Shown here one piece after another: positions 38,773 through 64,000 of a stretch of DNA of 64,000 nucleotides. Position 1 is the first letter of the stretch. Each line of letters begins with the position of its first letter. The notes beneath the pieces were generated by a model. That model ran no database searches, had not been told where the DNA came from, and saw only the letters and a program-made list of their open reading frames with translations. The translations under genes were made by a program, and so were the position numbers. Origin of the DNA: Escherichia coli (lineage in GTDB: Bacteria > Pseudomonadota > Gammaproteobacteria > Enterobacterales > Enterobacteriaceae); assembly GCF_046105845.1 (NCBI RefSeq), contig NZ_CP151004.1; one strand, written 5' to 3'.

Positions 38773-40768
<1,996 letters not shown>

Positions 40769-40893: not shown

Positions 40894-40897
40894 AATT

Positions 40898-42024
<1,127 letters not shown>

Positions 42025-42186
42025 TTAATTCGTAAAACGTGCTACCGATCACATTAAGAAATCAGCGCTTATTTTTTCGCTCCCGGGCATTACGCAATGA
42101 GCAGCGAACTCAGGCATACATCAAGCATAGAGAGGGATTGCAGTTTGCAGCAATCCCTCTTTGCAGACCTTTAATCCGCTGACCAT

Positions 42187-42214
42187 AGGCGCTAACATAG
42201 CGCCTCATTTTTTT
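42187..42214 (+). terminator. Terminator-like hairpin plus T-run in the dusC 5' leader
   Basis: aggcgcta-aca-tagcgcct followed by catttttttt, ending 12 nt before the dusC ATG. Hairpin then T-run only on the + strand. Confidence 0.5.
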
Positions 42215-42226
42215 GCGGGTGATGAT

Positions 42227-43174: not shown

Positions 43175-43239
43175 GAAACCATAGTGATGTTTTTTGACAA
43201 TGTGTTAGCTCTTTATCAATAGGCCGCACGGTTGTTTGG

Positions 43240-43445
43240 TGGCGTCAAAATCGCCGAGGCGTTCCCTGAAGGCCGGGGCAGCCCACATGGATGTGGGCTG
43301 AGGGCGCGTTTTACAGGGATGTTACCTCGCGCCCGACCCGGTAGCCGTAAGGGATAAGCCGAGGGCACCGCGCAGCGGCGATTTTGTTCGCCAGAGCCCG
43401 GGGGTGCAGGGGGCGGCGGCGATTGGCCGCCCCCTGCGCGCTCCT
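43240..43445. repeat. GC-rich multi-hairpin intergenic element (unclassified)
   Basis: Outer 11-bp inverted repeat caaaatcgccg (43246-43256) / cggcgattttg (43377-43387). Internal perfect hairpins at 43279-43300, 43302-43335 and 43407-43438. Confidence 0.6.
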
Positions 43446-43546
43446 TGCGCCAGTGATTATATGAAGCAATGCACATGACAGGAGCGCAACAGGATGAGAG
43501 ACTGAAATATTCTCGTTATTTTCGGATCTGATGACATTAATTAATT

Positions 43547-43630
43547 TTAAAATATCATCTTAAATACGCCAGTCACCACCAGTAGCCCAATCAGGAAAAT
43601 AATCAATACAGCCCAGAGTATAATTTTCAT
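43547..43630 (-). CDS. yohP: 27-aa single-TM small membrane protein
   Basis: Below the 60-aa track threshold; manual reverse-strand translation from ATG 43630 gives MKIILWAVLIIFLIGLLVVTGVFKMIF*. Confidence 0.7.
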   Translation of the reverse strand: MKIILWAVLIIFLIGLLVVTGVFKMIF

Positions 43631-43853
43631 TGGCGTTCCTTTATTTGTGAGTGCTGAATAAGTATAGGAAAAAACGAAGCCCTTTGCCGCTATCCATAAA
43701 CTATTAAGATAAATCGGAAGATATCATTCACTTAGTGTATATTTTTCTGGATATGTCGTTTTATTGCCACTGATGTATTGCCACGCGAAACTAAAAAATA
43801 TATCGCAACACACGGTAATCTCCGCGCACCTTTTCTTACCTGATTATTCCCCC

Positions 43854-45290: not shown

Positions 45291-45342
45291 TGATATGCGC
45301 CTTCTATACTTAACGTTTATTCAGCGTTAAGTGGAGAACTCG

Positions 45343-46104
45343 ATGGCACAGGTCGCGATTATTACCGCCTCCGATTCGGGGATCGGCAAAGAGTGCGCGT
45401 TATTACTGGCGCAGCAGGGGTTTGATATTGGTATTACCTGGCACTCTGATGAAGAAGGGGCAAAAGATACCGCGCGTGAGGTGGTTAGCCACGGCGTACG
45501 TGCGGAGATCGTGCAGCTGGATCTCGGCAATCTACCAGAAGGGGCACTGGCGCTGGAGAAACTCATTCAACGGCTGGGGCGTATTGATGTGCTGGTGAAT
45601 AATGCGGGCGCAATGACCAAAGCGCCGTTTCTTGATATGGCTTTCGATGAGTGGCGCAAGATTTTTACCGTTGATGTCGATGGTGCATTTTTATGCTCGC
45701 AAATTGCTGCCCGCCAGATGGTGAAACAAGGGCAGGGTGGTCGCATCATCAACATTACGTCGGTGCATGAACATACGCCGTTGCCGGATGCCAGCGCCTA
45801 CACAGCCGCTAAACATGCGCTCGGCGGGTTAACCAAAGCGATGGCGCTGGAGCTGGTCAGGCATAAGATTTTGGTGAATGCGGTTGCACCTGGGGCGATC
45901 GCCACGCCAATGAACGGCATGGATGATGGCGACGTGAAGCCCGGCGCGGAGCCTTCGATTCCCTTGCGGCGTTTTGGCGCAACGCATGAGATTGCCAGCC
46001 TGGTGATGTGGCTTTGTTCGGAGGGCGCAAATTACACCACTGGGCAGTCGTTGATAGTGGATGGCGGCTTTATGTTGGCGAATCCGCAGTTCAACCCAGA
46101 ATAG
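45343..46104 (+). CDS. yohF: Short-chain dehydrogenase/reductase
   Basis: 253 aa from ATG 45343 (MAQVAIITASDSGIGK…), SDR Rossmann motif. Confidence 0.88.
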   Translation: MAQVAIITASDSGIGKECALLLAQQGFDIGITWHSDEEGAKDTAREVVSHGVRAEIVQLDLGNLPEGALALEKLIQRLGRIDVLVNNAGAMTKAPFLDMAFDEWRKIFTVDVDGAFLCSQIAARQMVKQGQGGRIINITSVHEHTPLPDASAYTAAKHALGGLTKAMALELVRHKILVNAVAPGAIATPMNGMDDGDVKPGAEPSIPLRRFGATHEIASLVMWLCSEGANYTTGQSLIVDGGFMLANPQFNPE

Positions 46105-46147
46105 CGCAGTGAGGTGCGTGGTTATTTCATTGGGTAATATTTGGGTA

Positions 46148-46225
46148 GGCATGATAAGACGCACAAGCGTCGCATCAGGCATGGTGCACCGGATGTCGGA
46201 TGCGGCGCGAACGCCTTATCCTAGG
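46148..46225. repeat. REP/BIME cluster between yohF and yohD
   Basis: ggcatgataagacgcacaagcgtcgcatcaggca followed by ccggatgtcggatgcggcgcgaacgccttatcc: two REP-type palindromes. Confidence 0.75.
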
Positions 46226-46233
46226 CAATGGTT

Positions 46234-46812
46234 TTACGCCTGATTATCCGGCTTTTTCTTCCCGCGTCGTTTCAGCCACCAGCGCACGCCTACCACCAGA
46301 ACCACGACCAGAATCAACCAGACCCAGTGTTTCAAATGCTGGTCGAGATTGTGCAACCACGGCGCAATCACCTGACCACCAGCGTAACCGATAGTTGTAA
46401 AAATCAACGCCCAGGCAAATGCGCCAAGGATATTCAGTGGCAGAAAGATTTTCGGCGGCAGCTGGCTGGCACCAATCAGCGTCGGGCCAATCACCCTAAA
46501 GCCATACATAAAACGCGTACCAATGACAAACAGATACGGATGGCGTTGGATAAGTTTCTGCGCCCGCTCAATTTTATCCTGATGTTTCGAGAAACGGCGT
46601 AATAGCTTGCCGCCAAAGCGCCGCCCGCACAGATAAAGCACCTGGTCGCCAATCATGCCGCCAAGCGCCACAGAAAGTACCACCAGCGGGAACTTTAATA
46701 GCCCCTGATGTGCCGCAACGCCTCCCAGCAAAGTCACGGTTTCACCTTCCGCCAGGCTACCGATCACCAGCGCGGCATAACCATATTGTGAGATGAGTGT
46801 ATTGAGATCCAT
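46234..46812 (-). CDS. yohD: DedA-family inner membrane protein
   Basis: 192 aa from ATG 46812 (MDLNTLISQYGYAALVIGSL…); the track ORF is 5'-extended by 12 codons. Confidence 0.85.
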   Translation of the reverse strand: MDLNTLISQYGYAALVIGSLAEGETVTLLGGVAAHQGLLKFPLVVLSVALGGMIGDQVLYLCGRRFGGKLLRRFSKHQDKIERAQKLIQRHPYLFVIGTRFMYGFRVIGPTLIGASQLPPKIFLPLNILGAFAWALIFTTIGYAGGQVIAPWLHNLDQHLKHWVWLILVVVLVVGVRWWLKRRGKKKPDNQA

Positions 46813-46981
46813 AGGCCAGTCTGTCTCCCTTTGGTTGCCTGTAAGCATACACCCTGTAAATCATTCACGCTGAAAAAGGACGTACATCAGACGGTGCAAA
46901 TTACATGAGCGAACAAAAAATAATCACAAGCTGACTTATACTTGAACTGTCAGGTTCATGAACTCACAACAAGGGGGCGGT

Positions 46982-47569
46982 ATGAGCCATGTCTGGGGAC
47001 TGTTTTCCCATCCCGATCGTGAAATGCAGGTGATTAATCGCGAAAACGAAACGATTTCTCATCACTACACCCACCACGTTTTGCTGATGGCGGCGATTCC
47101 GGTGATTTGCGCCTTCATTGGCACTACACAGATTGGCTGGAATTTTGGCGATGGCACTATCCTGAAGTTATCCTGGTTTACCGGACTGGCGCTGGCTGTC
47201 CTGTTTTATGGCGTTATGCTGGCTGGGGTTGCGGTGATGGGGCGGGTCATCTGGTGGATGGCGCGCAATTACCCACAGCGTCCGTCACTTGCGCACTGCA
47301 TGGTCTTCGCGGGCTACGTTGCAACTCCGCTGTTTTTAAGCGGTCTGGTGGCGCTTTATCCGCTGGTCTGGTTGTGTGCGCTGGTCGGCACGGTGGCGCT
47401 GTTTTACACCGGCTACCTGCTGTATCTCGGTATTCCGAGCTTCCTGAATATCAACAAAGAGGAAGGCCTTAGCTTCTCCAGTTCGACGCTGGCGATTGGC
47501 GTGCTGGTACTGGAAGTGCTGCTCGCCCTTACCGTTATACTATGGGGTTACGGTTATCGTTTGTTCTAG
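46982..47569 (+). CDS. yohC: Yip1-family inner membrane protein
   Basis: 195 aa from ATG 46982 (MSHVWGLFSHPDRE…), multi-TM. Confidence 0.85.
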   Translation: MSHVWGLFSHPDREMQVINRENETISHHYTHHVLLMAAIPVICAFIGTTQIGWNFGDGTILKLSWFTGLALAVLFYGVMLAGVAVMGRVIWWMARNYPQRPSLAHCMVFAGYVATPLFLSGLVALYPLVWLCALVGTVALFYTGYLLYLGIPSFLNINKEEGLSFSSSTLAIGVLVLEVLLALTVILWGYGYRLF

Positions 47570-47742
47570 AAAGTTCTTTTGTGTTGCATTGCTGGCGTAA
47601 ATGTCAGCAATGCAGCATTTCCTCACGATTCTCCTTTGACGATCGCACTTTTTGCTCGTTATGATGGCGTCGCTAGCCTCAGTAAATCCTTACTCCGGCG
47701 GTGCGCAACCCGTGCGCGTGAACCACTATCTGAATGCTCATC

Positions 47743-48675
47743 ATGCCGAAATTTCGAGTTTCTTTATTTAGCCTGGCCCTGATGCTGGCTGTGCCTTTTG
47801 CACCGCAGGCCGTTGCGAAAACGGCAACCGCTACCACCGCTTCACAACCGGAAATTGCCTCCGGTAGCGCGATGATTGTTGATCTGAATACCAACAAAGT
47901 GATCTATTCGAACCACCCGGATCTGGTGCGTCCGATTGCGTCTATCAGCAAATTAATGACCGCGATGGTTGTGCTGGATGCGCGACTGCCGCTGGATGAA
48001 AAACTAAAAGTGGATATCAGCCAGACGCCGGAGATGAAAGGGGTCTATTCGCGCGTACGACTGAATAGCGAAATCAGCCGTAAAGATATGCTGTTGTTGG
48101 CGCTGATGTCTTCAGAAAACCGCGCGGCGGCAAGCCTTGCGCACCATTATCCCGGTGGTTACAAAGCCTTTATTAAGGCGATGAATGCGAAAGCGAAATC
48201 GCTCGGAATGAACAACACGCGCTTTGTTGAACCGACCGGATTGTCGGTGCATAACGTTTCAACCGCCCGTGACTTAACCAAACTGCTCATTGCCAGCAAA
48301 CAATATCCGTTGATCGGGCAGTTAAGTACTACCCGGGAAGATATGGCAACCTTCTCTAACCCGACGTATACGCTGCCGTTCCGCAATACTAACCATCTGG
48401 TGTATCGCGATAACTGGAATATTCAGTTAACCAAAACCGGCTTTACCAATGCGGCGGGCCATTGTCTGGTGATGCGTACGGTTATCAATAATAAACCGGT
48501 GGCGCTGGTAGTGATGGACGCGTTTGGCAAATATACCCATTTTGCCGATGCCAGCCGCCTGCGTACCTGGATTGAAACCGGTAAAGTGATGCCTGTTCCG
48601 GCAGCAGCGTTGAGCTATAAAAAACAAAAAGCCGCCCAGATGGCGGCGGCGGGGCAGACGGCACAGAACGATTAA
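47743..48675 (+). CDS. pbpG: D-alanyl-D-alanine endopeptidase (PBP7)
   Basis: 310 aa from ATG 47743 with a signal peptide and active-site SxxK (…SISKLMT…). Confidence 0.9.
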
Positions 48676-48713
48676 ATGAATGACGGATGGCGATACTCTG
48701 CCATCCGTAATTT

Positions 48714-50429
48714 TTACTCCACTTCCTGCCAGTTTTTCCGCTTACTGGTTTTACCGATCCCCGGATTCATGCTGTTGGTCGGATCGTTCTCGCGATAAAA
48801 CTTCTGCAACGTCTCCGGTGCTTTATACAAATGACCGACGTTATGCTCGGCAGGGTACTGCGCGCCGCGCTGCTGTAGCAGTTCCAGCATCTGTTCTTTC
48901 AACGCATGCACATCCACGCCTTTTTTAACGATGTAATCCTGATGGAAGACATAGCACATAAAATGGCCGTAATAGAGCTTGTGCACCAGCTGGCTGTCGA
49001 TCTCCGGCGGTAAATGCTCATACCACTCGGTGTCGTTACGCCGCAGAGCGATATCCAGTGCCAGAATGTCTTCGACTTCATCGGAATGCACCGCCTGATA
49101 ACGAATTGCTGCGCCCGCAGCGGCGAAACGGTGTAAAAACGCTTTGCTACCTTCCTCCGGCGTACAGACAAAGAAATCGCCTTCGGCCTGTTTGAAATAA
49201 TCCACCAGCCACGATTTGGCTTCACCGACGCCATCGCCCGCCATTTTTAACAGCAGATGATGTTCGTATTTATCGCGCCAGTTTTTCATGCGCGGCGGTA
49301 AATGGCTGGGGAACAGGTGACCGAATTTTTGCATCGCACGGTCGGTAAAATGCGGACGGAAGAATTTCACTTTCTCCAGCATCGCATCGGTGCGCCCCTT
49401 GAGATTAAAGAAGAACGGCATCTTGTCGGTGCCTAACTTATCAATCATCAGGAAGGTGTCTTTGCCGTATTTTTCCGCAATATCGTAGATATCCCGGTGC
49501 ATATATTCCCCGGCAACCGGCAGATTTTCGAAATTAGCCAGAATATGACGGCGGATTTCGGTCAGTACTTCCGGCTGGTTGGTGCCGATATAAAACACCT
49601 GCTGATTTTTTTCCGCTTCGAAGGTATCAAGACGTACCGCAAAGACGGCCAGCTTCCCGGCGCAACCAGAAGATTCAAATAACCGATCCGGATCGGCGTT
49701 ATAACGTGCAGGCGTGTCGGCTTCAATATCACGAACGCGGTGGACATAGTCATAATCGTGGGCGTGACGACCATCGTGACGCACATCGTCATCTTTGATG
49801 CGATCGTCATCCAGCTTGCTAAGGATCTGCTCCGGCGTTTCGCCCAGATCAATCCCGAGATGGTTAACCAGCGTCAGCTTGCCATCTTCATTTATACGCG
49901 CGAATAACGACATTTCGGTATACGCCGGGCCACGTTGCACCAACGAGCCGCCGGAGTTGTTACAAATACCGCCGATGACCGATGCGCCTATACACGATGA
50001 TCCAATCACTGAGTGCGGTTCGCGTCCCAGCGGTTTGAGGGCTTTTTCCAGCGAATAAAGCGTGGTGCCCGGATAGGCCAGCACCTGTTCGCCCTTGCCA
50101 AGAACGTGCAGCTTGTCGAGACGCAGGGTGCTGATGATCACGATATCGCGATCATAGTCGTTACCGTTTGGCGTCGAGCCTTCGGTCAGACCTGTATTGG
50201 CAGCCTGCATCAGAATAATTTTGTCGGCGGTGACGCAGGCTTTCAGCACCCGCCACAATTCCAGTAGTGAGCTAGGGAAAACGACAGCCAGCGCGTCGCC
50301 CTGACCAGAACGGAAGCCCTTGCGATAGCGGGCCGTTTTTGCGGGATCGGTGAGCAGGTGTGAATGACCGACCAGACGGGCAAGTTCATTCAAAAAGGCT
50401 TTATTATCAATTGTTGTCATGGAAGACAT
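48714..50429 (-). CDS. dld: FAD-dependent D-lactate dehydrogenase
   Basis: 571 aa from ATG 50429 (MSSMTTIDNKAFLNEL…), FAD-binding PCMH-type domain. Confidence 0.92.
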   Translation of the reverse strand: MSSMTTIDNKAFLNELARLVGHSHLLTDPAKTARYRKGFRSGQGDALAVVFPSSLLELWRVLKACVTADKIILMQAANTGLTEGSTPNGNDYDRDIVIISTLRLDKLHVLGKGEQVLAYPGTTLYSLEKALKPLGREPHSVIGSSCIGASVIGGICNNSGGSLVQRGPAYTEMSLFARINEDGKLTLVNHLGIDLGETPEQILSKLDDDRIKDDDVRHDGRHAHDYDYVHRVRDIEADTPARYNADPDRLFESSGCAGKLAVFAVRLDTFEAEKNQQVFYIGTNQPEVLTEIRRHILANFENLPVAGEYMHRDIYDIAEKYGKDTFLMIDKLGTDKMPFFFNLKGRTDAMLEKVKFFRPHFTDRAMQKFGHLFPSHLPPRMKNWRDKYEHHLLLKMAGDGVGEAKSWLVDYFKQAEGDFFVCTPEEGSKAFLHRFAAAGAAIRYQAVHSDEVEDILALDIALRRNDTEWYEHLPPEIDSQLVHKLYYGHFMCYVFHQDYIVKKGVDVHALKEQMLELLQQRGAQYPAEHNVGHLYKAPETLQKFYRENDPTNSMNPGIGKTSKRKNWQEVE

Positions 50430-50624
50430 TTTCCACTCCTTGTGGTGGCGAAAAAATATCACAACCTAGAATAGCGCCTTGTATGACAATTCAGCGAGTG
50501 AATATTTTGAAAATTCAGACAATAAACTGAGCATTCTTTTTCTCTCTCCATCATGCTTATGGCAAACTACGGTTTTTGCACCATTTTCGCTGCCACGTCG
50601 GGCAACAAAGGAAGAAAAATCCAT

Positions 50625-52922
50625 ATGAAATGGCTATGTTCAGTAGGAATCGCGGTGAGTCTGGCCCTGCAGCCAGCACTGGCGGATGATTTATTCGGTA
50701 ACCATCCATTAACGCCTGAAGCGCGGGATGCGTTCGTCACCGAACTGCTTAAGAAAATGACAGTTGATGAGAAAATTGGTCAGCTGCGCTTAATCAGCGT
50801 CGGCCCCGATAACCCGAAAGAGGCGATCCGCGAGATGATCAAAGACGGTCAGGTTGGGGCGATTTTCAACACCGTAACCCGTCAGGATATCCGCGCCATG
50901 CAGGATCAGGTGATGGAATTAAGCCGCCTGAAAATTCCTCTTTTCTTTGCTTACGACGTGCTGCACGGTCAGCGCACGGTGTTCCCGATTAGCCTCGGTC
51001 TGGCCTCGTCTTTTAACCTCGATGCGGTGAAAACGGTCGGACGTGTCTCTGCTTATGAAGCGGCAGATGATGGCCTGAATATGACCTGGGCACCAATGGT
51101 CGATGTTTCGCGCGATCCGCGCTGGGGACGTGCTTCCGAAGGTTTTGGCGAAGATACGTATCTCACCTCAATAATGGGTAAAACCATGGTGGAAGCGATG
51201 CAGGGTAAAAGTCCGGCAGATCGCTACTCGGTGATGACCAGCGTCAAACACTTTGCCGCTTACGGCGCGGTAGAAGGCGGTAAAGAGTACAACACCGTCG
51301 ATATGAGTCCGCAGCGCCTGTTTAATGATTATATGCCGCCGTACAAAGCGGGGCTGGACGCAGGCAGCGGCGCAGTGATGGTGGCGCTGAACTCGCTGAA
51401 CGGTACGCCAGCCACCTCCGACTCCTGGCTGCTGAAAGATGTTCTGCGCGACCAGTGGGGCTTTAAAGGCATCACCGTTTCCGATCACGGCGCAATCAAA
51501 GAGCTGATTAAACACGGCACGGCGGCAGATCCGGAAGATGCGGTGCGCGTGGCGCTTAAGTCCGGGATCAACATGAGCATGAGCGACGAGTATTACTCGA
51601 AGTATCTGCCTGGGTTGATCAAATCCGGCAAAGTGACCATGGCAGAGCTGGACGATGCTGCCCGCCATGTACTGAACGTTAAATATGATATGGGGTTGTT
51701 TAACGACCCATACAGCCATCTCGGTCCGAAAGAGTCTGACCCGGTGGATACCAATGCCGAAAGCCGCCTGCACCGCAAAGAAGCGCGTGAAGTGGCACGC
51801 GAAAGCCTGGTGTTGCTGAAAAACCGTCTCGAAACGTTACCGCTGAAAAAATCAGCCACCATTGCGGTGGTTGGGCCACTGGCGGACAGCAAACGTGACG
51901 TGATGGGCAGCTGGTCCGCAGCCGGTGTTGCCGATCAATCCGTGACCGTACTGACCGGGATTAAAAATGCCGTCGGTGAAAACGGTAAAGTGCTGTACGC
52001 CAAAGGGGCGAACGTCACCAGTGACAAAGGCATTATCGATTTCCTGAATCAGTATGAAGAGGCGGTCAAAGTCGATCCGCGTTCGCCGCAAGAGATGATT
52101 GATGAAGCGGTGCAAACCGCGAAACAATCTGATGTGGTGGTGGCTGTGGTCGGTGAAGCTCAGGGGATGGCGCACGAGGCCTCCAGCCGTACCGATATTA
52201 CTATTCCGCAAAGCCAACGTGACTTGATTGCGGCGTTGAAAGCCACTGGTAAACCGCTGGTGCTGGTGCTGATGAATGGGCGTCCGCTGGCGCTGGTGAA
52301 AGAAGATCAGCAGGCTGATGCGATTCTGGAAACCTGGTTTGCGGGTACGGAAGGGGGTAATGCGATTGCCGATGTATTGTTTGGCGATTACAACCCGTCC
52401 GGTAAGCTACCGATGTCCTTCCCGCGTTCTGTCGGGCAGATCCCGGTGTACTACAGCCATCTGAATACCGGGCGTCCGTATAATGCCGACAAGCCGAACA
52501 AATATACATCGCGTTATTTTGATGAAGCTAACGGGGCGCTGTATCCGTTCGGCTATGGTCTGAGCTATACCACCTTCACCGTCTCTGATGTGAAACTTTC
52601 CGCGCCGACCATGAAGCGTGACGGCAAAGTGACCGCCAGTGTGCAGGTGACGAACACCGGTAAGCGCGAAGGGGCGGCGGTAGTGCAGATGTACTTGCAG
52701 GATGTGACGGCTTCCATGAGTCGTCCGGTGAAGCAGCTGAAAGGCTTTGAGAAAATCACCCTGAAATCGGGCGAAACTCAGACCATCAGCTTCCCGATTG
52801 ATATCGAGGCGCTGAAGTTCTGGAATCAACAGATGAAATATGACGCCGAGCCTGGCAAGTTCAACGTCTTTATCGGCACTGATTCCGCACGCGTTAAGAA
52901 AGGCGAGTTTGAGTTGCTGTAA
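50625..52922 (+). CDS. bglX: Periplasmic beta-glucosidase (GH3)
   Basis: 765 aa from ATG 50625 (MKWLCSVGIAVSLALQPALA signal peptide), glycoside hydrolase family 3. Confidence 0.92.
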   Translation: MKWLCSVGIAVSLALQPALADDLFGNHPLTPEARDAFVTELLKKMTVDEKIGQLRLISVGPDNPKEAIREMIKDGQVGAIFNTVTRQDIRAMQDQVMELSRLKIPLFFAYDVLHGQRTVFPISLGLASSFNLDAVKTVGRVSAYEAADDGLNMTWAPMVDVSRDPRWGRASEGFGEDTYLTSIMGKTMVEAMQGKSPADRYSVMTSVKHFAAYGAVEGGKEYNTVDMSPQRLFNDYMPPYKAGLDAGSGAVMVALNSLNGTPATSDSWLLKDVLRDQWGFKGITVSDHGAIKELIKHGTAADPEDAVRVALKSGINMSMSDEYYSKYLPGLIKSGKVTMAELDDAARHVLNVKYDMGLFNDPYSHLGPKESDPVDTNAESRLHRKEAREVARESLVLLKNRLETLPLKKSATIAVVGPLADSKRDVMGSWSAAGVADQSVTVLTGIKNAVGENGKVLYAKGANVTSDKGIIDFLNQYEEAVKVDPRSPQEMIDEAVQTAKQSDVVVAVVGEAQGMAHEASSRTDITIPQSQRDLIAALKATGKPLVLVLMNGRPLALVKEDQQADAILETWFAGTEGGNAIADVLFGDYNPSGKLPMSFPRSVGQIPVYYSHLNTGRPYNADKPNKYTSRYFDEANGALYPFGYGLSYTTFTVSDVKLSAPTMKRDGKVTASVQVTNTGKREGAAVVQMYLQDVTASMSRPVKQLKGFEKITLKSGETQTISFPIDIEALKFWNQQMKYDAEPGKFNVFIGTDSARVKKGEFELL

Positions 52923-52997
52923 TGCTTTAGTAAGGGCGCGACGTCTGCGCCCTTTGCCTGATGTTCATATCTTAACTTGCTGAATTTTCGCCCTTTG

Positions 52998-53032
52998 TAG
53001 GCCGGATAAGGCGCTCGCGCCGCATCCGGCAG
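52998..53032. repeat. REP element between bglX and osmF
   Basis: gtaggccggataaggcgctcgcgccgcatccggca, a canonical REP. Confidence 0.75.
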
Positions 53033-53173
53033 GAAACGCCGGACCGAATATGCCTCTTAAGTATTTATCTGATTCTGCAACTGAATCCGTCCGCTCAGGC
53101 TAACCCCACCATTATCAACTATGCTTTTCTCTTAATTCGCTGAAAACAACAGTAAAAGAATGAGGAAAGCATC

Positions 53174-54091
53174 ATGCCACTCTCAAAGGTCTGGGCCGGT
53201 TCACTGGTTATGTTGGCGGCCGTGAGCCTGCCGCTACAGGCAGCTTCTCCCGTTAAAGTCGGTTCAAAAATCGATACTGAAGGCGCGCTGCTCGGCAACA
53301 TTATTTTGCAAGTGCTGGAAAACCACGGCGTACCAACGGTCAATAAAGTGCAACTTGGAACGACTCCTGTGGTGCGCGGGGCGATCACTTCCGGTGAACT
53401 GGATATCTATCCGGAATATACCGGCAATGGCGCGTTTTTCTTTAAAGATGAAAACGATGCGGCGTGGAAAAATGCCGGGCAAGGCTACGAGAAAGTCAAA
53501 AAGCTCGATGCAGAGCAAAACAAGTTAATCTGGCTGACGCCTGCGCCTGCAAATAACACCTGGACCATCGCCGTGCGTCAGGATGTGGCAGAGAAAAACA
53601 AACTCACTTCGCTTGCTGACCTGAGTCGTTATCTGAAAGACGGTGGCACCTTCAAACTGGCGGCCTCAGCAGAGTTTATCGAACGCGCCGATGCGTTACC
53701 TGCGTTTGAAAAAGCCTATGGCTTTAAGCTCGGTCAGGATCAGTTGCTGTCACTGGCTGGTGGCGACACGGCGGTGACGATCAAAGCCGCTGCCCAGCAA
53801 ACCTCTGGCGTTAATGCCGCAATGGCTTACGGCACTGACGGCCCGGTCGCGGCGCTGGGGCTGCAAACCTTAAGCGATCCGCAAGGCGTGCAACCTATCT
53901 ACGCGCCTGCACCAGTGGTGCGTGAGTCGGTGTTGAAAGAGTATCCACAAATGGCACAGTGGCTACAGCCAGTCTTCGCCAGCCTCGATGAAAAAACATT
54001 GCAGCAACTGAATGCCAGCATTGCTGTGGAAGGACTGGATGCCAAAAAAGTGGCTGCCGACTACCTGAAACAAAAAGGGTGGACGAAGTAA
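53174..54091 (+). CDS. osmF: Glycine betaine ABC transporter periplasmic binding protein
   Basis: 305-aa ORF with a signal peptide (…AAVSLPLQAASPV…), first gene of a four-gene ABC cluster. Confidence 0.9.
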   Translation: MPLSKVWAGSLVMLAAVSLPLQAASPVKVGSKIDTEGALLGNIILQVLENHGVPTVNKVQLGTTPVVRGAITSGELDIYPEYTGNGAFFFKDENDAAWKNAGQGYEKVKKLDAEQNKLIWLTPAPANNTWTIAVRQDVAEKNKLTSLADLSRYLKDGGTFKLAASAEFIERADALPAFEKAYGFKLGQDQLLSLAGGDTAVTIKAAAQQTSGVNAAMAYGTDGPVAALGLQTLSDPQGVQPIYAPAPVVRESVLKEYPQMAQWLQPVFASLDEKTLQQLNASIAVEGLDAKKVAADYLKQKGWTK

Positions 54092-54097
54092 TTTCCC

Positions 54098-55255
54098 GTG
54101 ACTTATCTACGTATTAATCCTGTTCTGGCGCTGCTGCTGTTGCTGACGGCAATCGCAGCGGCGCTGCCGTTTATCAGTTACGCGTCTAATCGTTTAGTTT
54201 CGGGTGAGGGGCGTCATCTCTGGCAGCTGTGGCCGCAAACGATCTGGATGCTGGTGGGCGTTGGTTGCGCCTGGCTGACCGCCTGTGTTATTCCCGGTAA
54301 AAAAGGCAGCATTTGTGCACTCATTCTGGCGCAATTCGTCTTCGTATTGCTGGTGTGGGGAGCTGGAAAGGCGGCGACACAACTGGCGCAAAATGGCAGT
54401 GCGCTGGCGCGTACCAGCCTCGGCAGTGGTTTCTGGCTGGCTGCGGCGCTGGCATTGCTGGCCTGTAGCGATGCCATCCGCCGAATCTCCACGCATCCGC
54501 TGTGGCGCTGGTTGTTGCATATGCAGATTGCCATCATTCCGCTGTGGTTGCTGTATTCCGGCGCGCTTAACGATCTCTCGCTAATGAAAGAATACGCCAA
54601 CCGTCAGGATGTGTTTGATGACGCGCTGGCGCAACATCTGACGTTGCTGTTTGGTGCGGTGCTGCCTGCGTTAGTGATTGGTGTGCCGCTGGGCGTCTGG
54701 TGCTACTTTTCCACTGCGCGGCAGGGGGCGATTTTTTCTCTGCTGAATGTCATTCAGACCGTGCCTTCGGTGGCGCTCTTTGGCCTGTTGATTGCGCCGC
54801 TTGCCGCGCTGGTTACGGCCTTTCCGTGGCTGGGTAAGCTCGGCATAGCAGGAACCGGAATGACACCCGCACTGATTGCGCTGGTGCTCTATGCCTTGCT
54901 GCCGCTGGTGCGCGGCGTGGTAGTCGGCTTGAACCAGATCCCGCGCGATGTGCTGGAGAGCGCCAGAGCGATGGGCATGAGCGGGGCGCAGCGATTCCTG
55001 CATGTTCAGTTACCGCTGGCGTTACCGGTATTTCTGCGCAGCCTGCGGGTGGTGATGGTGCAAACCGTCGGCATGGCGGTGATTGCGGCGTTAATCGGCG
55101 CAGGCGGTTTTGGGGCGCTGGTTTTCCAGGGGCTGCTAAGCAGTGCCATTGATTTAGTGTTGCTGGGGGTGATCCCGGTAATTGTTCTGGCGGTGCTGAT
55201 CGATGCGCTGTTCGATTTGCTTATCGCACTGCTGAAGGTGAAACGTAATGATTGA
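54098..55255 (+). CDS. yehY: Glycine betaine ABC transporter permease
   Basis: 385-aa polytopic permease with a BPD-transporter domain. Confidence 0.9.
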
Positions 55256-56174
55256 ATTTAGCCATGTCAGCAAACTGTTCGGCGCACAAAAAGCCGTTAA
55301 CGATCTCAATCTCAATTTTCAGGAAGGGAGTTTTTCGGTGCTGATTGGCACATCTGGTTCCGGCAAATCCACCACCCTGAAAATGATTAACCGCCTGGTG
55401 GAGCATGACAGCGGCGTGATCCGCTTTGCCGGAGAAGAAATTCGCTCGCTGCCAGTACTGGAGTTGCGCCGCCGGATGGGCTACGCCATTCAATCTATTG
55501 GCCTGTTCCCCCACTGGAGCGTGGCGCAAAACATCGCTACCGTGCCGCAATTACAAAAATGGTCGCGGGCGCGGATTGACGATCGTATCGACGAATTAAT
55601 GGCGCTACTGGGGCTGGAGCCAAATTTGCGTGAGCGTTATCCGCATCAGCTTTCTGGCGGTCAGCAGCAACGTGTGGGAGTGGCGCGCGCACTGGCTGCC
55701 GATCCGCAAGTCTTACTGATGGATGAACCTTTTGGCGCACTGGACCCGGTAACGCGCGGCGCGTTGCAACAAGAGATGACGCGCATTCACCGTTTGCTGG
55801 GGCGCACTATTGTGCTGGTCACTCATGATATTGATGAGGCGCTACGGCTGGCAGAACATCTGGTGTTGATGGATCACGGTGAAGTGGTGCAGCAGGGCAA
55901 TCCGCTGACGATGCTGACTCGTCCGGCGAATGATTTTGTCCGCCAGTTTTTTGGGCATAGTGAACTGGGTGTCCGCCTGCTTTCGTTACGTAGCGTGGCG
56001 GATTACGTGCGTCGCGAAGAACGGGCAGAAGGTGAGGCGCTGGCAGAAGAGATGACGCTACGCGATGCGCTCTCCCTGTTTGTCGCGCGGGGATGTGAAG
56101 TGCTGCCGGTGGTGAACACGCAGGGCCAGCCTTGCGGCACGCTGCATTTTCAGGATCTGCTGGTGGAGGCGTAA
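55248..56174 (+). CDS. yehX: Glycine betaine ABC transporter ATPase
   Basis: 308-aa ORF with Walker [10 protein letters not shown], signature LSGGQQQRV and a C-terminal CBS-like tail; overlaps yehY by 8 bp. Confidence 0.9.
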
Positions 56175-56178
56175 GCGT

Positions 56179-56910
56179 ATGAAGATGTTGCGCGATCCGC
56201 TGTTTTGGCTCATTGCTTTGTTTGTGGCACTGCTTTTCTGGCTGCCTTACAGCCAGCCGCTGTTTGCTGCTTTGTTCCCACAACTGCCACGACCCGTTTA
56301 TCAGCAGGAAAGCTTTGCAGCTCTGGCACTGGCTCATTTCTGGCTGGTGGGAATTTCGAGTTTGTTTGCGGTGATCATTGGTACTGGTGCCGGAATTATT
56401 GTTACTCGCCCGTGGGGCGCGGAATTTCGCCCACTGGTGGAAACTATTGCCGCCGTTGGGCAGACTTTTCCGCCCGTTGCGGTGCTGGCGATTGCCGTTC
56501 CGGTGATTGGGTTTGGTCTGCAACCCGCGATTATCGCCTTGATCCTTTACGGTGTGCTGCCCGTCCTGCAGGCGACACTTGCCGGGCTGGGAGCGATTGA
56601 TGCCAGCGTGACAGAAGTTGCGAAAGGTATGGGAATGAGCCGTGGTCAGCGACTGCGTAAGGTCGAGCTACCGCTGGCGGCTCCGGTGATTCTGGCGGGC
56701 GTGCGAACTTCGGTGATTATCAACATTGGTACGGCGACGATCGCCTCAACGGTAGGGGCCAGCACGCTGGGTACGCCGATCATCATCGGGCTTAGCGGAT
56801 TTAATACCGCGTATGTGATCCAGGGGGCGTTACTGGTGGCACTGGCGGCGATCATTGCAGACCGCCTGTTTGAAAGGCTGGTGCAGGCGCTTAGCCAGCA
56901 CGCAAAATAA
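56179..56910 (+). CDS. yehW: Glycine betaine ABC transporter permease
   Basis: 243-aa permease; its stop overlaps the 3' end of the convergent yohO. Confidence 0.9.
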
Positions 56911-56998
56911 AGGTATAACCTGCGAGCATGACGCCACCAATTCCGCCTAACGCCATAAACAGGAACAGGGCGATGACCCCAATTTTAGCTATGCGCAT
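56891..56998 (-). CDS. yohO: 35-aa single-TM small membrane protein
   Basis: Below the track threshold; manual reverse-strand translation from ATG 56998 gives [35 protein letters not shown]. Confidence 0.7.
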
Positions 56999-57057
56999 AA
57001 TGCACTCCTTATGTTAACGAAAGGATTGTACAGTAAAGCGCATTTGTTAACGAATCA

Positions 57058-57789
57058 TTAAATGCCGAGTGGGAAAATATCATGGCCTTGTTCCTGCCAA
57101 CTGGTGAGTTGCTGCTGTTGGGCGGAGGTTCGATTTTCACCGCACCACACCAGCAATGTACGGCCTTCGAACAGTTCAGGGCGTAGTTGATTGAGCGAGT
57201 GGGCGAGGACATCAATGCGCCATCCTTGTTGACTGGCAATCCAGCCCTCCAGCCACAGACGGGTGGTATCATGAATATTCCAGCCAACCACCAACGCATC
57301 TTTACCCTGTTTTTTACGTGCCGAAGCCAGGCAAATGGCGATGTAGTTGATCAGTACGCCGTCGAGGATCGCCAGCAGCGCCTGGAGAGTCGGTTGTTGG
57401 CACTGAAGTCGTCGGCGCAGAGGAATAAACAGATGTGTGGTGAGCGTCTGGGCGGGGTAATCCTGACCGCGCTCTTTGATCCACGTTCGCAGGCTATGCA
57501 GATTGCCGCTTTGCAGGTAAGTCAGTAATGTTTCTTGCTGATCGCGCCAGCCGTTCTGCACATCAACATTTTCATTACTGAGCAGCATTTTAACTTTGCT
57601 GACCTGCACGCCGTTGTCGATCCAGCGTTTGATCTCGCGGATCCGGTCAATATCGGCATCATTGAACAGCCGATGACCGCCGTCTGTCCGTTGCGGTTTC
57701 AGCAATCCGTAACGCCTCTGCCACGCGCGTAACGTGACAGGGTTAATATCACAAAGCAACGCCACTTCACCAATTGTGTAAAGCGCCAT
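57058..57789 (-). CDS. mlrA: MerR-family transcriptional regulator (curli/csgD activator type)
   Basis: 243-aa ORF with N-terminal MerR HTH (MALYTIGEVALLCDINPVTLRAWQRRYGLLKPQRTDGGHRLF…). Confidence 0.9.
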   Translation of the reverse strand: MALYTIGEVALLCDINPVTLRAWQRRYGLLKPQRTDGGHRLFNDADIDRIREIKRWIDNGVQVSKVKMLLSNENVDVQNGWRDQQETLLTYLQSGNLHSLRTWIKERGQDYPAQTLTTHLFIPLRRRLQCQQPTLQALLAILDGVLINYIAICLASARKKQGKDALVVGWNIHDTTRLWLEGWIASQQGWRIDVLAHSLNQLRPELFEGRTLLVWCGENRTSAQQQQLTSWQEQGHDIFPLGI

Positions 57790-58010
57790 CGTCTCACCCT
57801 TGCTCGCGAGGTCCCGGTTTAACTTTAGACGCAGTTTTGCGAACCAGGTAGTTTTGCCCGTTTTTTGTGCATCTATAGGGTGATTTTATTTTTGCCAGGC
57901 GATTTTGAGTGATCGTACTCACGAATTCTCATTTTTCTGCAAGAGTTCAAAGAAAGTTAAACGCAGGCAATGTATGTTACGCGTTTTAAAGGGAAGTGTG
58001 GTTTGCGGGT

Positions 58011-59696
58011 ATGTACGATTTTAATCTGGTGTTGCTGCTGCTTCAGCAGATGTGCGTTTTTTTAGTCATTGCGTGGTTAATGAGTAAAACGCCATTATTC
58101 ATACCGTTAATGCAGGTCACGGTTCGTCTGCCGCATAAATTTCTCTGCTACATCGTCTTTTCCATCTTCTGCATCATGGGCACCTGGTTTGGGCTGCATA
58201 TTGACGATTCTATTGCCAATACCCGTGCGATAGGCGCGGTAATGGGCGGCTTACTCGGCGGTCCGGTCGTCGGTGGGCTGGTTGGTCTGACCGGCGGGTT
58301 ACATCGATATTCGATGGGGGGCATGACCGCGCTAAGTTGCATGATCTCGACCATCGTTGAAGGGTTGCTCGGCGGCCTGGTACACAGCATCCTGATCCGT
58401 CGCGGGCGCACTGATAAAGTCTTTAACCCCATTACCGCCGGTGCCGTCACGTTCGTCGCTGAAATGGTGCAAATGTTGATCATCCTGGCGATCGCCCGAC
58501 CTTATGAAGATGCGGTGCGTTTGGTGAGTAATATTGCTGCGCCAATGATGGTCACCAATACCGTCGGCGCGGCGCTGTTTATGCGTATATTGCTCGATAA
58601 ACGCGCGATGTTTGAAAAATACACTTCGGCTTTTTCTGCCACTGCGCTAAAAGTGGCTGCCTCGACGGAAGGCATTTTGCGCCAGGGGTTTAACGAAGTG
58701 AACAGCATGAAAGTGGCACAGGTGCTGTATCAGGAGCTGGATATTGGTGCAGTCGCGATTACCGATCGAGAAAAATTGCTGGCCTTTACCGGAATTGGTG
58801 ACGACCACCATTTACCCGGCAAACCGATTTCTTCGACTTATACCTTAAAAGCGATTGAAACCGGTGAAGTGGTCTACGCTGATGGCAACGAAGTACCTTA
58901 TCGTTGCTCTTTGCATCCGCAATGCAAACTGGGATCGACGCTGGTAATTCCGTTGCGTGGCGAAAATCAGCGGGTGATGGGCACCATCAAATTGTATGAA
59001 GCCAAAAACCGTTTATTCAGTTCAATCAACCGCACGCTGGGCGAGGGGATTGCGCAACTGCTTTCGGCGCAGATCCTCGCCGGGCAATATGAGCGGCAAA
59101 AAGCGATGCTCACCCAGTCAGAGATCAAACTGCTTCACGCCCAGGTGAACCCCCATTTTTTGTTTAATGCGCTTAACACCATTAAAGCGGTGATCCGCCG
59201 CGACAGCGAACAGGCCAGCCAGCTGGTGCAGTATCTTTCCACTTTTTTCCGCAAAAACTTAAAGCGGCCTTCGGAGTTTGTTACTCTCGCAGACGAAATT
59301 GAACATGTGAACGCTTATCTGCAAATTGAAAAGGCGCGCTTCCAGTCGCGGTTGCAGGTCAACATTGCTATTCCGCAAGAATTATCCCAGCAGCAATTGC
59401 CCGCGTTTACCCTGCAACCGATAGTGGAAAACGCCATTAAACATGGGACATCACAACTGCTCGATACAGGGCGAGTGGCAATCAGCGCCCGACGTGAGGG
59501 GCAACATTTGATGCTGGAGATCGAAGACAATGCCGGTTTGTATCAACCGGTAACCAATGCCAGTGGGCTGGGGATGAATCTGGTGGATAAGCGTTTACGT
59601 GAACGGTTTGGCGATGACTATGGGATAAGCGTCGCCTGTGAGCCTGATAGTTACACCCGAATAACGTTACGACTACCATGGAGGGACGAGGCATGA
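58011..59696 (+). CDS. btsS: LytS-type sensor histidine kinase (pyruvate-sensing two-component system)
   Basis: 561 aa from ATG 58011; 5TM-LytS N-terminus, GAF-like region, His-kinase with conserved …[14 protein letters not shown]… H-box. Confidence 0.9.
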
Positions 59697-60412
59697 TTAA
59701 AGTCTTAATTGTCGATGATGAACCGTTAGCACGGGAGAACCTGCGCGTATTTTTGCAGGAGCAGAGCGATATTGAAATCGTTGGTGAGTGTTCAAACGCC
59801 GTGGAAGGGATCGGCGCGGTGCATAAACTGCGCCCGGATGTGCTGTTTCTTGATATCCAGATGCCGCGCATCAGTGGTCTGGAAATGGTGGGAATGCTCG
59901 ACCCGGAACATCGTCCGTATATCGTTTTTCTCACCGCGTTTGACGAATACGCTATTAAAGCCTTTGAAGAACATGCCTTTGATTATCTGCTGAAGCCAAT
60001 TGACGAAGCGCGACTGGAGAAAACGCTGGCGCGATTGCGTCTGGAGCGCAGCAAGCAGGATGTTTCGCTGTTACCGGAAAATCAACAGGCGCTGAAATTT
60101 ATCCCTTGTACGGGGCATAGTCGGATTTATTTGCTGCAAATGAAAGATGTGGCATTTGTCAGCAGTCGGATGAGCGGTGTCTACGTTACCAGTCACGAAG
60201 GGAAAGAGGGCTTTACCGAACTGACATTACGTACCCTGGAGAGTCGTACACCACTACTACGCTGCCATCGTCAGTATCTGGTTAACCTCGCGCATTTACA
60301 GGAGATTCGTCTGGAAGATAACGGCCAGGCCGAGTTGATTTTGCGTAATGGCTTAACCGTGCCGGTCAGCCGTCGTTATCTGAAAAGCTTAAAAGAGGCG
60401 ATTGGCCTGTAA
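59693..60412 (+). CDS. btsR: LytTR-family response regulator
   Basis: 239 aa from ATG 59693 ([16 protein letters not shown]…); receiver domain plus LytTR DNA-binding domain; start overlaps the btsS stop (ATGA). Confidence 0.9.
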
Positions 60413-60969: not shown

Positions 60970-61431
60970 TTATTTCACTTCTTTAAAACCAGCGGCTTTC
61001 ATCACCAGTTCCATTTGCGCCATAGTGATACCTTTTTTGGCATCTTCAGCAGAAACGTTGATTCCTGAAATACCCTGCAGGGCTTTAAAATCCACTTTTT
61101 CCATATCGATAGTCACGTTTTCCTGCGCGTAGGTATCGGTATAGGTTAATTTTTCTTCAACACCCGCGATGTTTTTGTATTTGGCGCTTAACGGCTCAAG
61201 TGTCTTGGCAGCATCTTCTTTGGTGGTTGCACCAATGGAGGCAAATTGAATTTTGGTTTCAGAAGATTGCTTAAGCACCTTGTCACCTTTGTAGACATAG
61301 GTAATGGCAATTTCAGTGCCGTTCAGATTGGCGCTGAATTTTTTCGATTCTTCTTTGTCACCGCAGCCAGCAAGAGAGAAAACCAGAACAGATGCAACAA
61401 CGAGGGAAAACAGCTTATTGAAAGCCTTCAT
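60970..61431 (-). CDS. yehR: Lipoprotein (DUF1307)
   Basis: 153 aa from ATG 61431 (MKAFNKLFSLVVASVLVFSLAGC, lipobox). Confidence 0.85.
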   Translation of the reverse strand: MKAFNKLFSLVVASVLVFSLAGCGDKEESKKFSANLNGTEIAITYVYKGDKVLKQSSETKIQFASIGATTKEDAAKTLEPLSAKYKNIAGVEEKLTYTDTYAQENVTIDMEKVDFKALQGISGINVSAEDAKKGITMAQMELVMKAAGFKEVK

Positions 61432-61876
61432 GTAAAACTCCATTTTATTTAATCAAGGAACTGGTGACTCTCACCAGGGGCTATATAGGATATGCCTAAT
61501 ACCGTGGCGTGAGCAGTCCGGAACTGGAGTAGAACTCTTAGTAAAAAGCACTATTTCATCCTTGTTGCTGAAGCATGGGGAATAATTGTTCGCAAAGCAA
61601 AACACCGTTATTCATTGCTTCTACCCGTGCCTCGCTTTCTGTATTACGAAATTGTGCCAACACATGTGCCAGCCGATAAAAACCCACCGCGGTGAGGTCA
61701 TTCGCCAGCAACTCTGCCTGACCAATAGCACTCTGTTCCTGATAGCGCCAGCCGTTATGGAGCAGTTGAATAAGTAACGCCTGGCAGCGCATCAGCAACT
61801 GATGAGCGGTAGACGGCACAGGCAGAACGCTGGCAGAAGGTAGCGGTGCCACAGGCGCAGTTTCTGCGTCCAGCGC

Positions 61877-63556
61877 TCAGGCGCGGGTTTTGGTCATCAT
61901 TACCCGTGGTTCCAGTGTCAATTGCCCCTCAACAAAACTGACAAAGCCAGAAACCAGACTCACGGGGTCGTCTGTGTGTTGCAAAAGTGCCGCCATGCGT
62001 TCAACGGCAAAAGGAGAACAGGCAGATGCCGGAAGGGATAACGTCAGCACATTATCTTCCCCTTCGCCGCTAATGACCTGCGCGTCCAGTGTCTGGCGGC
62101 TGCTATCCCAACCAAGCGAAATACACTCCGCTACCGGCAGAATAAATAAGTTATCGACCTGGTTGAGTGGTCGTATGCAGGCGGGGGGACGCTGGCGTAA
62201 ATATTCCCGCAAAGCCACAATGCCCGACTGGCGCAACGGCGCGCTCAACATTTGCCAGGCGTCTGGCGACAGCGGCACAACGCTGCTTAAGCGGTTGCGG
62301 GTAGCTAACAACAGCTCGCCATCGGCACTGCGTTTTGCTGCTTGTGAAACAATTTGCCCACCTGCCAGTGCGCCAGCCAGAAAACTAAACAGCCGACGCG
62401 TCGCTGCCGGTGAGTTTTCCTGTTCGCTTCTCGGCCAACTACGCGAAAGATGCAAAATACTGCCAGTGTCGGGATCGGTAAACCAGATGCGTAAACCATA
62501 ATGCTCAATATCCTGCCAGCAACGCATACCTAAAGACACCAGCCGCAGATGATCAAGCTTTGCTTCTCCGGCAATGCCAGAGCCAACGACCGTGCGCCAC
62601 GGCACAGGAGGAACTTCACCAACACTGTCGCGCCGGGCCATCTCTTGTGCGCAATTTAATCGACTGTTTAATGCCGCAAGCTGACGTAAGCATTCTCCGA
62701 CATGATAGTGGCTGGCGCGGGCGTGGAAGGCATCAACGCTGGCGCGCAGTTGCCGTAGCGATTCACTCACCCAGCGCCAGTTGCAGCGTTCCGCCGCTTG
62801 CTGCGCGCGGCTGAAAGCAGCCTTGTAATGAATAAGCGGCTGGCTGATGCCGCCAAGCCATAACGCCTGGCTTAATTGCTGAACATATTGACGACACGCG
62901 TCGCCCTCATCGTTGGCAAACGGATCGTCAGATGATGTGACGTGTTCGCTGCGCATCTGCCAGATTAAATGAGTAAATTCCGCTTGCTGCGCTTTGGCCT
63001 GGACAAAGGCCTGTACTGCCAGTACGACATGTTCGCAAAGTGTGCCGTCAATACAATCACAGCGTGCGAAACGAATGCTGCTGCGGGAATAAAAACGTAC
63101 ATCGCTCATCGGTAAGCGGGCAGAGGGAATTTCGCCCGGCGTACAGAACAACTCAATGGTGATGCCTTTAGCGACCAGTGTCTGTGCGCGTTTGCGGGTG
63201 GCATCGGGCAGGGTAGCCAGTTCTTCCAGCCAGATTGCCGGATCCCACTCTTCTTCTTTTTCCGTAGGCTGGGTGGTGGCGCAAAGTCGCTGATAACTTA
63301 AAACCAGCATCACGCGATGGCGGCACATGCCGCTGGCCCCGCAGCTGCATTGAGCCTCTTTCAGTGCCTGACCGTTCGCCAGCTGGGTGCGGACACCGTC
63401 ACTGAAGGTGGCGATTAAAGCGCCGTTCTCATGGCTGATTTCCGGGACGTTGCCATTTTCCAGTTCTTTAAGGCTGCGCTTAACAAAACCGGCATTGCTT
63501 AACGCCGTCAAAGCTTGTGGTGTCAGTTCTAATAATTCCGGCCGTAGTGAATTCAT
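61877..63556 (-). CDS. yehQ: SWIM zinc-finger domain protein (reading frame ends at an in-frame TGA; see findings)
   Basis: 559-aa ORF; start ATG overlaps the yehP stop (ATGA at 63553-63556). Contains Cys/His SWIM-like clusters (…CSCGASGMCRHRV…, …CDCIDGTLCEHV…). Confidence 0.75.
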   Translation of the reverse strand: MNSLRPELLELTPQALTALSNAGFVKRSLKELENGNVPEISHENGALIATFSDGVRTQLANGQALKEAQCSCGASGMCRHRVMLVLSYQRLCATTQPTEKEEEWDPAIWLEELATLPDATRKRAQTLVAKGITIELFCTPGEIPSARLPMSDVRFYSRSSIRFARCDCIDGTLCEHVVLAVQAFVQAKAQQAEFTHLIWQMRSEHVTSSDDPFANDEGDACRQYVQQLSQALWLGGISQPLIHYKAAFSRAQQAAERCNWRWVSESLRQLRASVDAFHARASHYHVGECLRQLAALNSRLNCAQEMARRDSVGEVPPVPWRTVVGSGIAGEAKLDHLRLVSLGMRCWQDIEHYGLRIWFTDPDTGSILHLSRSWPRSEQENSPAATRRLFSFLAGALAGGQIVSQAAKRSADGELLLATRNRLSSVVPLSPDAWQMLSAPLRQSGIVALREYLRQRPPACIRPLNQVDNLFILPVAECISLGWDSSRQTLDAQVISGEGEDNVLTLSLPASACSPFAVERMAALLQHTDDPVSLVSGFVSFVEGQLTLEPRVMMTKTRA

Positions 63557-64000
63557 GACTGAAGATTCTCCGCAAGCCAGGTCGCCAGTTCGCCCGGCGT
63601 CATGGCGGCTATTTGTGCGCCGACATTAACCAGCGCCTGGGCCGTATCGTGGTCATAGCAAGGTGTTGCGGTGCTATCGAGCGCCGCCAGTCCCAGTACT
63701 TTGATGCCGCTCTGGACACACTTTTTCACCTGATGCGTCAGTAATGATGATGAACCCCCTTCGTAAAAATCGCTCACGAGGATAATGACGCTTTTCGCTG
63801 GTTGTTCAATAAGTTGCCGACCATATTCCATGGCACTGGCGATATTGGTTCCGCCGCCTAATTGCACTTTCATTAATAACTCTACCGGATCGGCAACGTC
63901 TGCCGTGAGATCAACCACGCTGGTGTCAAACGCCACCAGATGGGTACGAATACCGGGTAACTGCCATAAACAGGTCGCCATCACCGCTGAGTGGATCACC
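63553..64000 (-). CDS. yehP: von Willebrand factor A (VWA) domain protein, C-terminal part (N-terminus beyond window end)
   Basis: Open reverse-strand frame to the window edge; VWA-like sequence (…VAFDTSVVDL…GGGTNIASAMEYG…ILVSDFYEGG…). Confidence 0.8.
   Translation of the reverse strand, partial: VIHSAVMATCLWQLPGIRTHLVAFDTSVVDLTADVADPVELLMKVQLGGGTNIASAMEYGRQLIEQPAKSVIILVSDFYEGGSSSLLTHQVKKCVQSGIKVLGLAALDSTATPCYDHDTAQALVNVGAQIAAMTPGELATWLAENLQS

Follow-up and report, generated by a model that had tools for sequence, protein, structure and literature searches.

A single-base opal stop at codon 560 interrupts yehQ in an Escherichia coli clone

Close to one end of a 64,000-nucleotide stretch of an Escherichia coli genome (the window; contig NZ_CP151004.1 of assembly GCF_046105845.1) lies yehQ, the last gene of the operon yehLMPQ, and in this strain its reading frame is interrupted. 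On the minus strand, positions 63556 to 61556 form one frame of 667 triplets including the terminal stop, and the sole internal stop is a TGA at codon 560 (61877..61879). The frame runs as 559 codons, the TGA, and 106 further codons, 666 in all, before the terminal stop is reached. Codons 1–559 (61880..63556) form an open reading frame (ORF) from the ATG at 63556 and are predicted to be still translated, into a truncated SWIM-domain protein. Codons 561–666 (61559..61876) form a remnant that is still open and presumably untranslated; it aligns colinearly with the C-terminus of every full-length homologue. Past the internal TGA, 8 sense codons lead to a GTG at 61852, from which 97 more reach a second TGA (61556..61558), which stands where intact 666-codon alleles stop and is the ancestral end of yehQ. 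The original prediction, made from this stretch of DNA alone, had described a frame split by a single in-frame TGA at 61879-61877, and both the coordinates and the layout are as it gave them. It had also counted 107 further codons; the frame is indeed open over that distance, but the figure includes the terminal stop, leaving 106 sense codons.

The proposed name, yehQ, and the proposed SWIM domain are supported by genome matches and by a domain profile. Of 5,426 complete RefSeq E. coli genomes, 5,317 match a 2.1-kb query covering the yehQ region at 94–98.5% DNA identity, with 80% or more of the query aligned, and the matched region is annotated as “yehQ: SWIM zinc finger family protein”, adjoining yehP. 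Codons 1–559 share 98.5% of their nucleotides with the intact yehQ of E. coli SCU-102. The SWIM zinc-finger motif occupies residues 56–88 (63293..63391, minus strand) and matches Pfam PF04434 with E = 2.7e-8 and 33.6 bits, against a cutoff of 19.6; its residues C70, C72, C78, and H80 are invariant among 16 aligned YehQ homologues. Upstream, the 3' end of yehP, encoding a VWA_CoxE protein, is cut by the window edge (63553..64000, minus strand). It was recognized from its ORF, from annotated orthologous loci, and from a Pfam search of the full-length orthologue, and its stop overlaps the yehQ start (ATGA). The order yehL-yehM-yehP-yehQ, yehR, yehS-btsR-btsS is common to the window and 18 annotated E. 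coli loci. More generally, the gene order of the window is that of standard E. coli, and no gap or insertion of the size of an insertion sequence is evident from the ORF layout. The SWIM finger of the CxCxnCxH type is thus present near the N-terminus and the gene sits at its conserved position, while the uninterrupted frame of about 666 codons, with its C-terminal helical domain, is broken at codon 560. Judged by sequence, the locus is a yehQ orthologue in a disrupted allele.

An open frame on both sides of a stop is in itself a poor guide. In random sequence, 106 open codons after a stop have a probability of (61/64)^106, or about 0.006, and stop-to-stop intervals of this length make up 130 of 4,886 in the window (2.7%), most of them real genes. 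The arrangement of a long frame, one stop, and another long frame recurs at four other places in the window, and at one or more of these (54089-54091) the stop separates two adjacent long ORFs that happen to share a frame. Because the same arrangement recurs at these four places, the split frame alone proves nothing, and homology has to decide.

Two comparisons suggested at the outset, an alignment with other genomes and a search for homologues that extend past the stop, were carried out. For the first, the window was aligned with a panel of 18 complete E. coli genomes, picked at regular intervals along the ranking by similarity. Codon 560 is the sense codon TGG in all 18 panel genomes and TGA in the window alone. 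The intact gene is 2,001 bp long (666 codons) in the closest relative, SCU-102, which is 98.5% identical, and 2,001–2,004 bp (666–667 codons) in 15 other intact genomes sampled, including Nissle and O157:H7. Orthologues therefore run 106 residues beyond the window's ORF, and they are nearly identical to it over that distance: the remnant differs from intact alleles at 3–10 of 318 nucleotides and ends at the same terminal stop codon.

The second comparison covered 5.8 billion proteins. Full-length homologues are colinear with 97–100% of the YehQ query. They measure 664–672 amino acids in E. fergusonii, E. marmotae, E. ruysiae, and E. albertii, 664–668 in Klebsiella (59–64% identity), and 670–676 in Erwinia and Pseudomonas graminis (about 55% identity); outside E. 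coli the overall range is 664–702, and all cover the C-terminus. The 106 codons past the stop thus have homologous, conserved counterparts as far away as Klebsiella, Erwinia, and Pseudomonas. In the 16-sequence alignment, with identities as low as 48%, A559 and W560 do not vary and R558 is nearly invariant, and after codon 560 the residues L562, L572, P573, L588, L595, H600, N601, G602, Q606, G625, L629, L654, and L658 are invariant. The ratio of nonsynonymous to synonymous substitution rates (dN/dS) among intact E. coli alleles is 0.11 for codons 1–559 and 0.33 for codons 561–666; the latter value marks the downstream segment as coding sequence under constraint. A sense codon one base away in orthologues, together with in-frame homology downstream, is the signature of a pseudogene with an internal stop. 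These alignments indicate that the stop at codon 560 is a TGG>TGA transition and not a natural gene end. Of the possibilities raised at the outset, a nonsense-mutation pseudogene and a strain polymorphism are the two that these orthologues support.

The mutation is young. Against the 18-genome panel, the 2,001 bp of yehQ carry just two substitutions private to the window: codon 481 changes synonymously from CTC to CTT, and codon 560 from TGG to TGA. The 318 nucleotides after the stop have none. Because no private change has accumulated downstream, the mutation is too recent for decay to show. The exact 559-residue product occurs on five contigs in a public protein collection, one longer than 1 Mb (the longest listed is 4.74 Mb) and four of 10–20 kb. 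It has no protein accession, as expected if NCBI annotates the gene as a pseudogene, and the contig displayed for it is a Logan assembly of a read set. In the Logan assembly of ERR13115083, a 15.2-kb contig carries the same TGA at codon 560 and differs from the window by one single-nucleotide polymorphism in 10,999 bp (window position 53703). Because of that one difference, we regard this contig as an independent data set from a sister isolate and not a copy. A 41-mer centred on the TGA was found in 0 of 5,426 complete E. coli genomes and its TGG counterpart in 2,720; the query is built such that it seeds a megablast match only if the central base agrees. None of these complete genomes matches the window at more than 98.5% identity, either over the yehQ region (61500-63600) or over core genes (40000-60000); the window therefore comes from a rarely sampled lineage, or from a record that does not carry the label of a complete RefSeq E. 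coli genome. On the sequences compared, the nonsense mutation is recent and confined to one clone, and the allele is rare, as far as a census limited to the window's local haplotype can say.

Taken together, these observations make it very probable that a single G>A transition on the minus strand, at window position 61877, turned the invariant Trp560 codon into an opal stop, giving a recent, clone-specific nonsense allele that truncates the last 107 codons, Trp560 included. Translation from the normal yehQ start now ends after 559 residues, and the truncated YehQ would be inactive or strongly impaired. Such a loss could be tolerated because yehLMPQ seems dispensable and, in K-12, is silenced by H-NS.

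What the truncation removes can be approximated from an AlphaFold2 model of YehQ built on the 16-sequence alignment. The model places a beta-strand at residues 558–561, a disordered linker at 564–580 (predicted local distance difference test score, pLDDT, below 50), and then helices at 583–601, 603–624, 627–638, and 641–665, a block with pLDDT of 82–91. On this model and on the invariant residues, codons 583–665 (61562..61810, minus strand) encode a C-terminal four-helix domain, and a stop after residue 559 takes away the end of the last beta-strand, the flexible linker, and the whole of that domain. WcbI was rejected as an identity for the 106-residue tail; the Pfam match is below threshold, at 12.8 bits against a cutoff of 29.2.

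The truncation may not be complete in every product. In a K-12 reporter, about 2% of ribosomes read through UGA at 37 °C and about 4% at 25 °C, with competition of release factor RF2 against Trp-tRNA(Trp) setting the level (PMC10570021). Misreading of UGA by near-cognate Trp-tRNA(Trp) would restore the original residue in a small percentage of products. Readthrough would yield wild-type YehQ, Trp being the ancestral residue at codon 560. By analogy with such leaky opal alleles, the allele may be a severe hypomorph and not a strict null. The window's yehQ resembles them in having UGA at a former Trp codon; however, nothing in yehQ suggests that readthrough is selected or regulated, and the stop is conserved nowhere else.

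Several points weigh against this account of a recent, disabling nonsense allele or limit its reach. The readthrough figures come from a K-12 reporter, with another stop context (here it is UGA-G) and another strain. That the 559-residue product is non-functional or strongly impaired is something we infer from sequence and from a model that is moderate overall, with a mean pLDDT of 69 and a predicted template modelling score of 0.39. Comparison with known proteins lends little help here. A sequence search of the PDB with YehQ gave no match, Foldseek against the PDB gave none that was significant (best E 0.013, with weak OB-fold-like and CheA-P1-like matches at template modelling scores of 0.1–0.5), an NCBIfam profile search of YehQ gave no match, and PADLOC-DB v2.0.0 returned 0 families for YehL, YehM, YehP, and YehQ at E <= 0.01. 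As to rarity, the 41-mer census reaches only the window's local haplotype, and about half of the genomes cannot be seeded because of flanking polymorphisms. There are at least five haplotypes around codon 560, and a TGA on another of them would escape the census since flanking polymorphisms prevent a seed match; the 18 panel genomes span the flanking haplotypes, and all have TGG. Finally, a single isolate or clone, sequenced repeatedly, could account for all five contigs.

Other explanations of the interrupted frame deserve consideration. The lesion is a single base and is found in no complete RefSeq E. coli genome of the window's haplotype, as might be expected if the true codon were TGG, yehQ were intact, and the stop were an error of sequencing or assembly. 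However, the exact truncated product recurs on the five contigs described above, and the independent ERR13115083 read set, non-identical to the window, has the same TGA. The site itself, ACCCGCGCCTGAGCGCTGG, is not an error-prone context, because it contains no homopolymer longer than four bases. An error, which the original prediction had listed as an option, is consequently very improbable. The option that yehQ naturally ends at codon 559, with a coincidental open frame behind it, fares worse still. Apart from the ORF call itself, nothing favours it, and all intact E. coli alleles (666–667 codons) and full-length homologues (664–702 residues) run past this point, through 106 codons that are homologous, contain invariant residues, and are under purifying selection. 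The refuting test that the original prediction set for a coincidental frame thus comes out against this reading, and we give it next to no credence.

Two further explanations would accept the stop and assign it a function. UGA is both the selenocysteine codon and the leakiest stop in E. coli (PMC10570021), and a small hairpin (GCGCAG-AAA-CUGCGC) begins 7 nucleotides after it, so that full-length YehQ might be the main product, through selenocysteine insertion directed by a selenocysteine insertion sequence (SECIS) or through programmed readthrough. A scan of 61400-62100 found no Rfam family at E <= 10, SECIS models included, apart from one spurious snoRNA match, and the fold of the 76 nucleotides that surround and follow the UGA is no more stable than that of shuffled sequences (z = -1.3, with 19 of 200 shuffles as good). 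The hairpin, 5–6 bp with an AAA loop, is identical in genomes that have TGG; because it is the same there, it did not evolve with the stop. Neither a 3' SECIS nor a Cys or selenocysteine in relatives, as selenoprotein genes would show, was found at codon 560; orthologues have Trp. Programmed readthrough would conserve the stop and the downstream coding signature together, but the stop is conserved in 0 of 18 E. coli and 0 of 16 distant homologues, all of which have a sense codon, and the allele is private to one clone. Recoding of this kind is extremely unlikely. It could also be that the gene has been split, with YehQ(1–559) cooperating with a separate 98-residue protein started at the GTG at 61852 or with a product of a later start. 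The downstream frame is intact, and one automatic gene caller lists an 87-residue ORF from a GTG at 61819. An intact frame would be expected in any case, because the mutation is too young for decay. Eight in-frame ATG, GTG, or TTG codons follow the stop, but none has a usable Shine-Dalgarno sequence; the best pairing with the anti-Shine-Dalgarno sequence is -3.6 kcal/mol, compared with -6.6 and -5.9 kcal/mol at the real starts of yehQ and yehR. The exact 98-residue sequence is also absent from a collection of 15 billion proteins. A functional split is, in our estimate, highly unlikely.

The recent loss of Trp560 is one of several lesions in this operon. yehLMPQ encodes an AAA_5 (dynein/MoxR-type) ATPase, a DUF5682 protein, a VWA_CoxE protein, and the SWIM protein. 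In K-12 hns/stpA mutants, yehL and yehM are up-regulated, which means that they are normally silenced (PMC3686432). The literature on yehQ is essentially nonexistent; matches to the name are almost all false and derive from DOI strings. Tested as a known anti-phage defence system, the operon fails, with zero PADLOC-DB matches for its four proteins. In the sister assembly ERR13115083, yehL (362 amino acids), yehM (759), and yehP (378) are intact, and for this reason the yehQ stop is the only operon lesion in that clone.

Elsewhere in the species, 6 of the 18 panel genomes carry an annotated yehLMPQ lesion (yehL lies outside the fetched locus for two, SCU-102 and Nissle), and the 7 lesions are all different. 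K-12 has an amber mutation, GAG>TAG, at codon 615 of yehQ, where its near relative NT1N28 has GAG, and RM9131 has a 2-bp deletion at codon 571 of the same gene. Strain 746 combines a yehL frameshift with a stop at codon 224 of yehM; O18:H1 has a stop at codon 36 of yehL; O157:H7 7409 has an internal stop in yehM; and in NT1N28 yehL is cut by IS1, by insertion or by deletion. In Shigella sonnei, lineages 2 and 3 have yehM-yehL deleted (PMC12795559). All of these are inactivating, as in the window, but each affects another gene or position or is of another type, and none is a stop at codon 560. No pseudogene is seen among the neighbours: yehR, yehS, and btsR are unbroken in the 18 loci, as are btsS, mlrA, and yohO in the 14 loci long enough to include them. 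As read from these sequences, E. coli lineages have broken yehLMPQ repeatedly and by different lesions.

The K-12 allele is the closest parallel. RefSeq/PGAP annotates K-12 yehQ as a pseudogene with an “internal stop”, and like the window's gene it has a single-base nonsense mutation near the C-terminus (a 614-residue product) with the upstream frame and the operon otherwise intact. The two mutations are independent: the window has GAG at codon 615, where K-12 has its amber, and the two yehQ backgrounds differ at about 6% of nucleotides. On the model, the K-12 allele removes roughly the second half of the four-helix domain, in contrast to the window allele, which removes all of it.

In DNA sequence, three yehQ lesions are seen, at codons 560, 571, and 615 of 666. 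Each lies within the final 16% of the gene and takes away some or all of the C-terminal helical domain. Under a uniform spread of lesions, three in that interval would have a chance of about 0.004, but the sample is tiny, and it depends on the way in which the finding was chosen. The protein collection, which contains several in-frame length variants of YehQ, also includes forms truncated after residues 405 and 458, and these count against C-terminal clustering. One could imagine that this H-NS-silenced AAA+/VWA/SWIM module is repeatedly, possibly under selection, disabled or tuned down, perhaps preferentially through the C-terminal domain of YehQ, and was not simply hit at random; we consider this an unlikely reading of the data. 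In its favour are features that are uncommon in an E. coli core locus: raised synonymous diversity, many in-frame length variants in the helical region of YehQ, independent lesions in 6 of 18 panel genomes, and the loss of the C-terminal helical domain, in whole or in part, through all three yehQ lesions. If it were true, a UGA at a Trp codon would act as a leaky “dimmer” that leaves a few percent of full-length YehQ, and not as a null.

For annotation, yehQ in this genome should be described as disrupted, with an internal stop at codon 560. Automatic gene callers split it into a 559-residue gene and an ORF of 98 or 87 residues, and it should not be recorded as a 559-residue gene accompanied by such a hypothetical ORF. 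With the allele W560opal, a poorly understood operon, whose reference copy in K-12 is itself defective, gains a further independent lesion. Because of that defect, work on yehLMPQ function should start from a strain with four intact genes, for example HS4 or ATCC 11303. The allele is new but of a well-known kind, a private nonsense mutation in a dispensable gene, and is unremarkable on its own.

Some further observations concern the diversity of the locus. Among 10 genomes with an intact operon, synonymous diversity in yehLMPQ is two to three times that of its neighbours, with a mean pairwise synonymous divergence (dS) of 0.09–0.12 compared with 0.02–0.055 for yehR, yehS, btsR, btsS, and mlrA. 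Within yehQ, dS is 0.16 over codons 1–559 but 0.05 over codons 561–666, a contrast that points to long-standing allelic lineages or to a recombination boundary within the gene.

Variants in length also occur in the middle of yehQ. A near-direct repeat of 10 nucleotides, TTCTCCGGCA at 62564-62573 and TTCTCCGACA at 62693-62702, spaced 129 bp apart at about codons 286–328, brackets a 43-residue in-frame deletion (residues 286–328) in the Shigella sonnei-type YehQ (623 amino acids; form P0060, 40 contigs). Another form, P0018, has a 43-residue insertion at residue 285 that matches the segment between the repeats. In-frame YehQ indels of 15–62 residues all fall between residues 175 and 365, a helical region, with the exception of one deletion (470–503).

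Beyond the end of the gene, the spacer between yehQ and yehR holds a perfect 7-bp inverted repeat, CTGGTGA-GAG-TCACCAG (61461-61477, minus strand), 30 nucleotides upstream of the yehR start at 61431. All 20 loci compared carry it unchanged, although the neighbouring yehQ is diverse. It could serve as an operator, or form an RNA hairpin where the yehQ transcript ends; there is no T-run after it, and a terminator scan did not detect it. Elsewhere in the window, an uninterrupted ORF of 508 codons (43764-45290, plus strand) lies where E. coli genomes are annotated with mdtQ. In K-12, mdtQ (yohG) counts as a pseudogene; should this hold, each of the two strains would have an intact gene, or a longer frame, where the other has a pseudogene.

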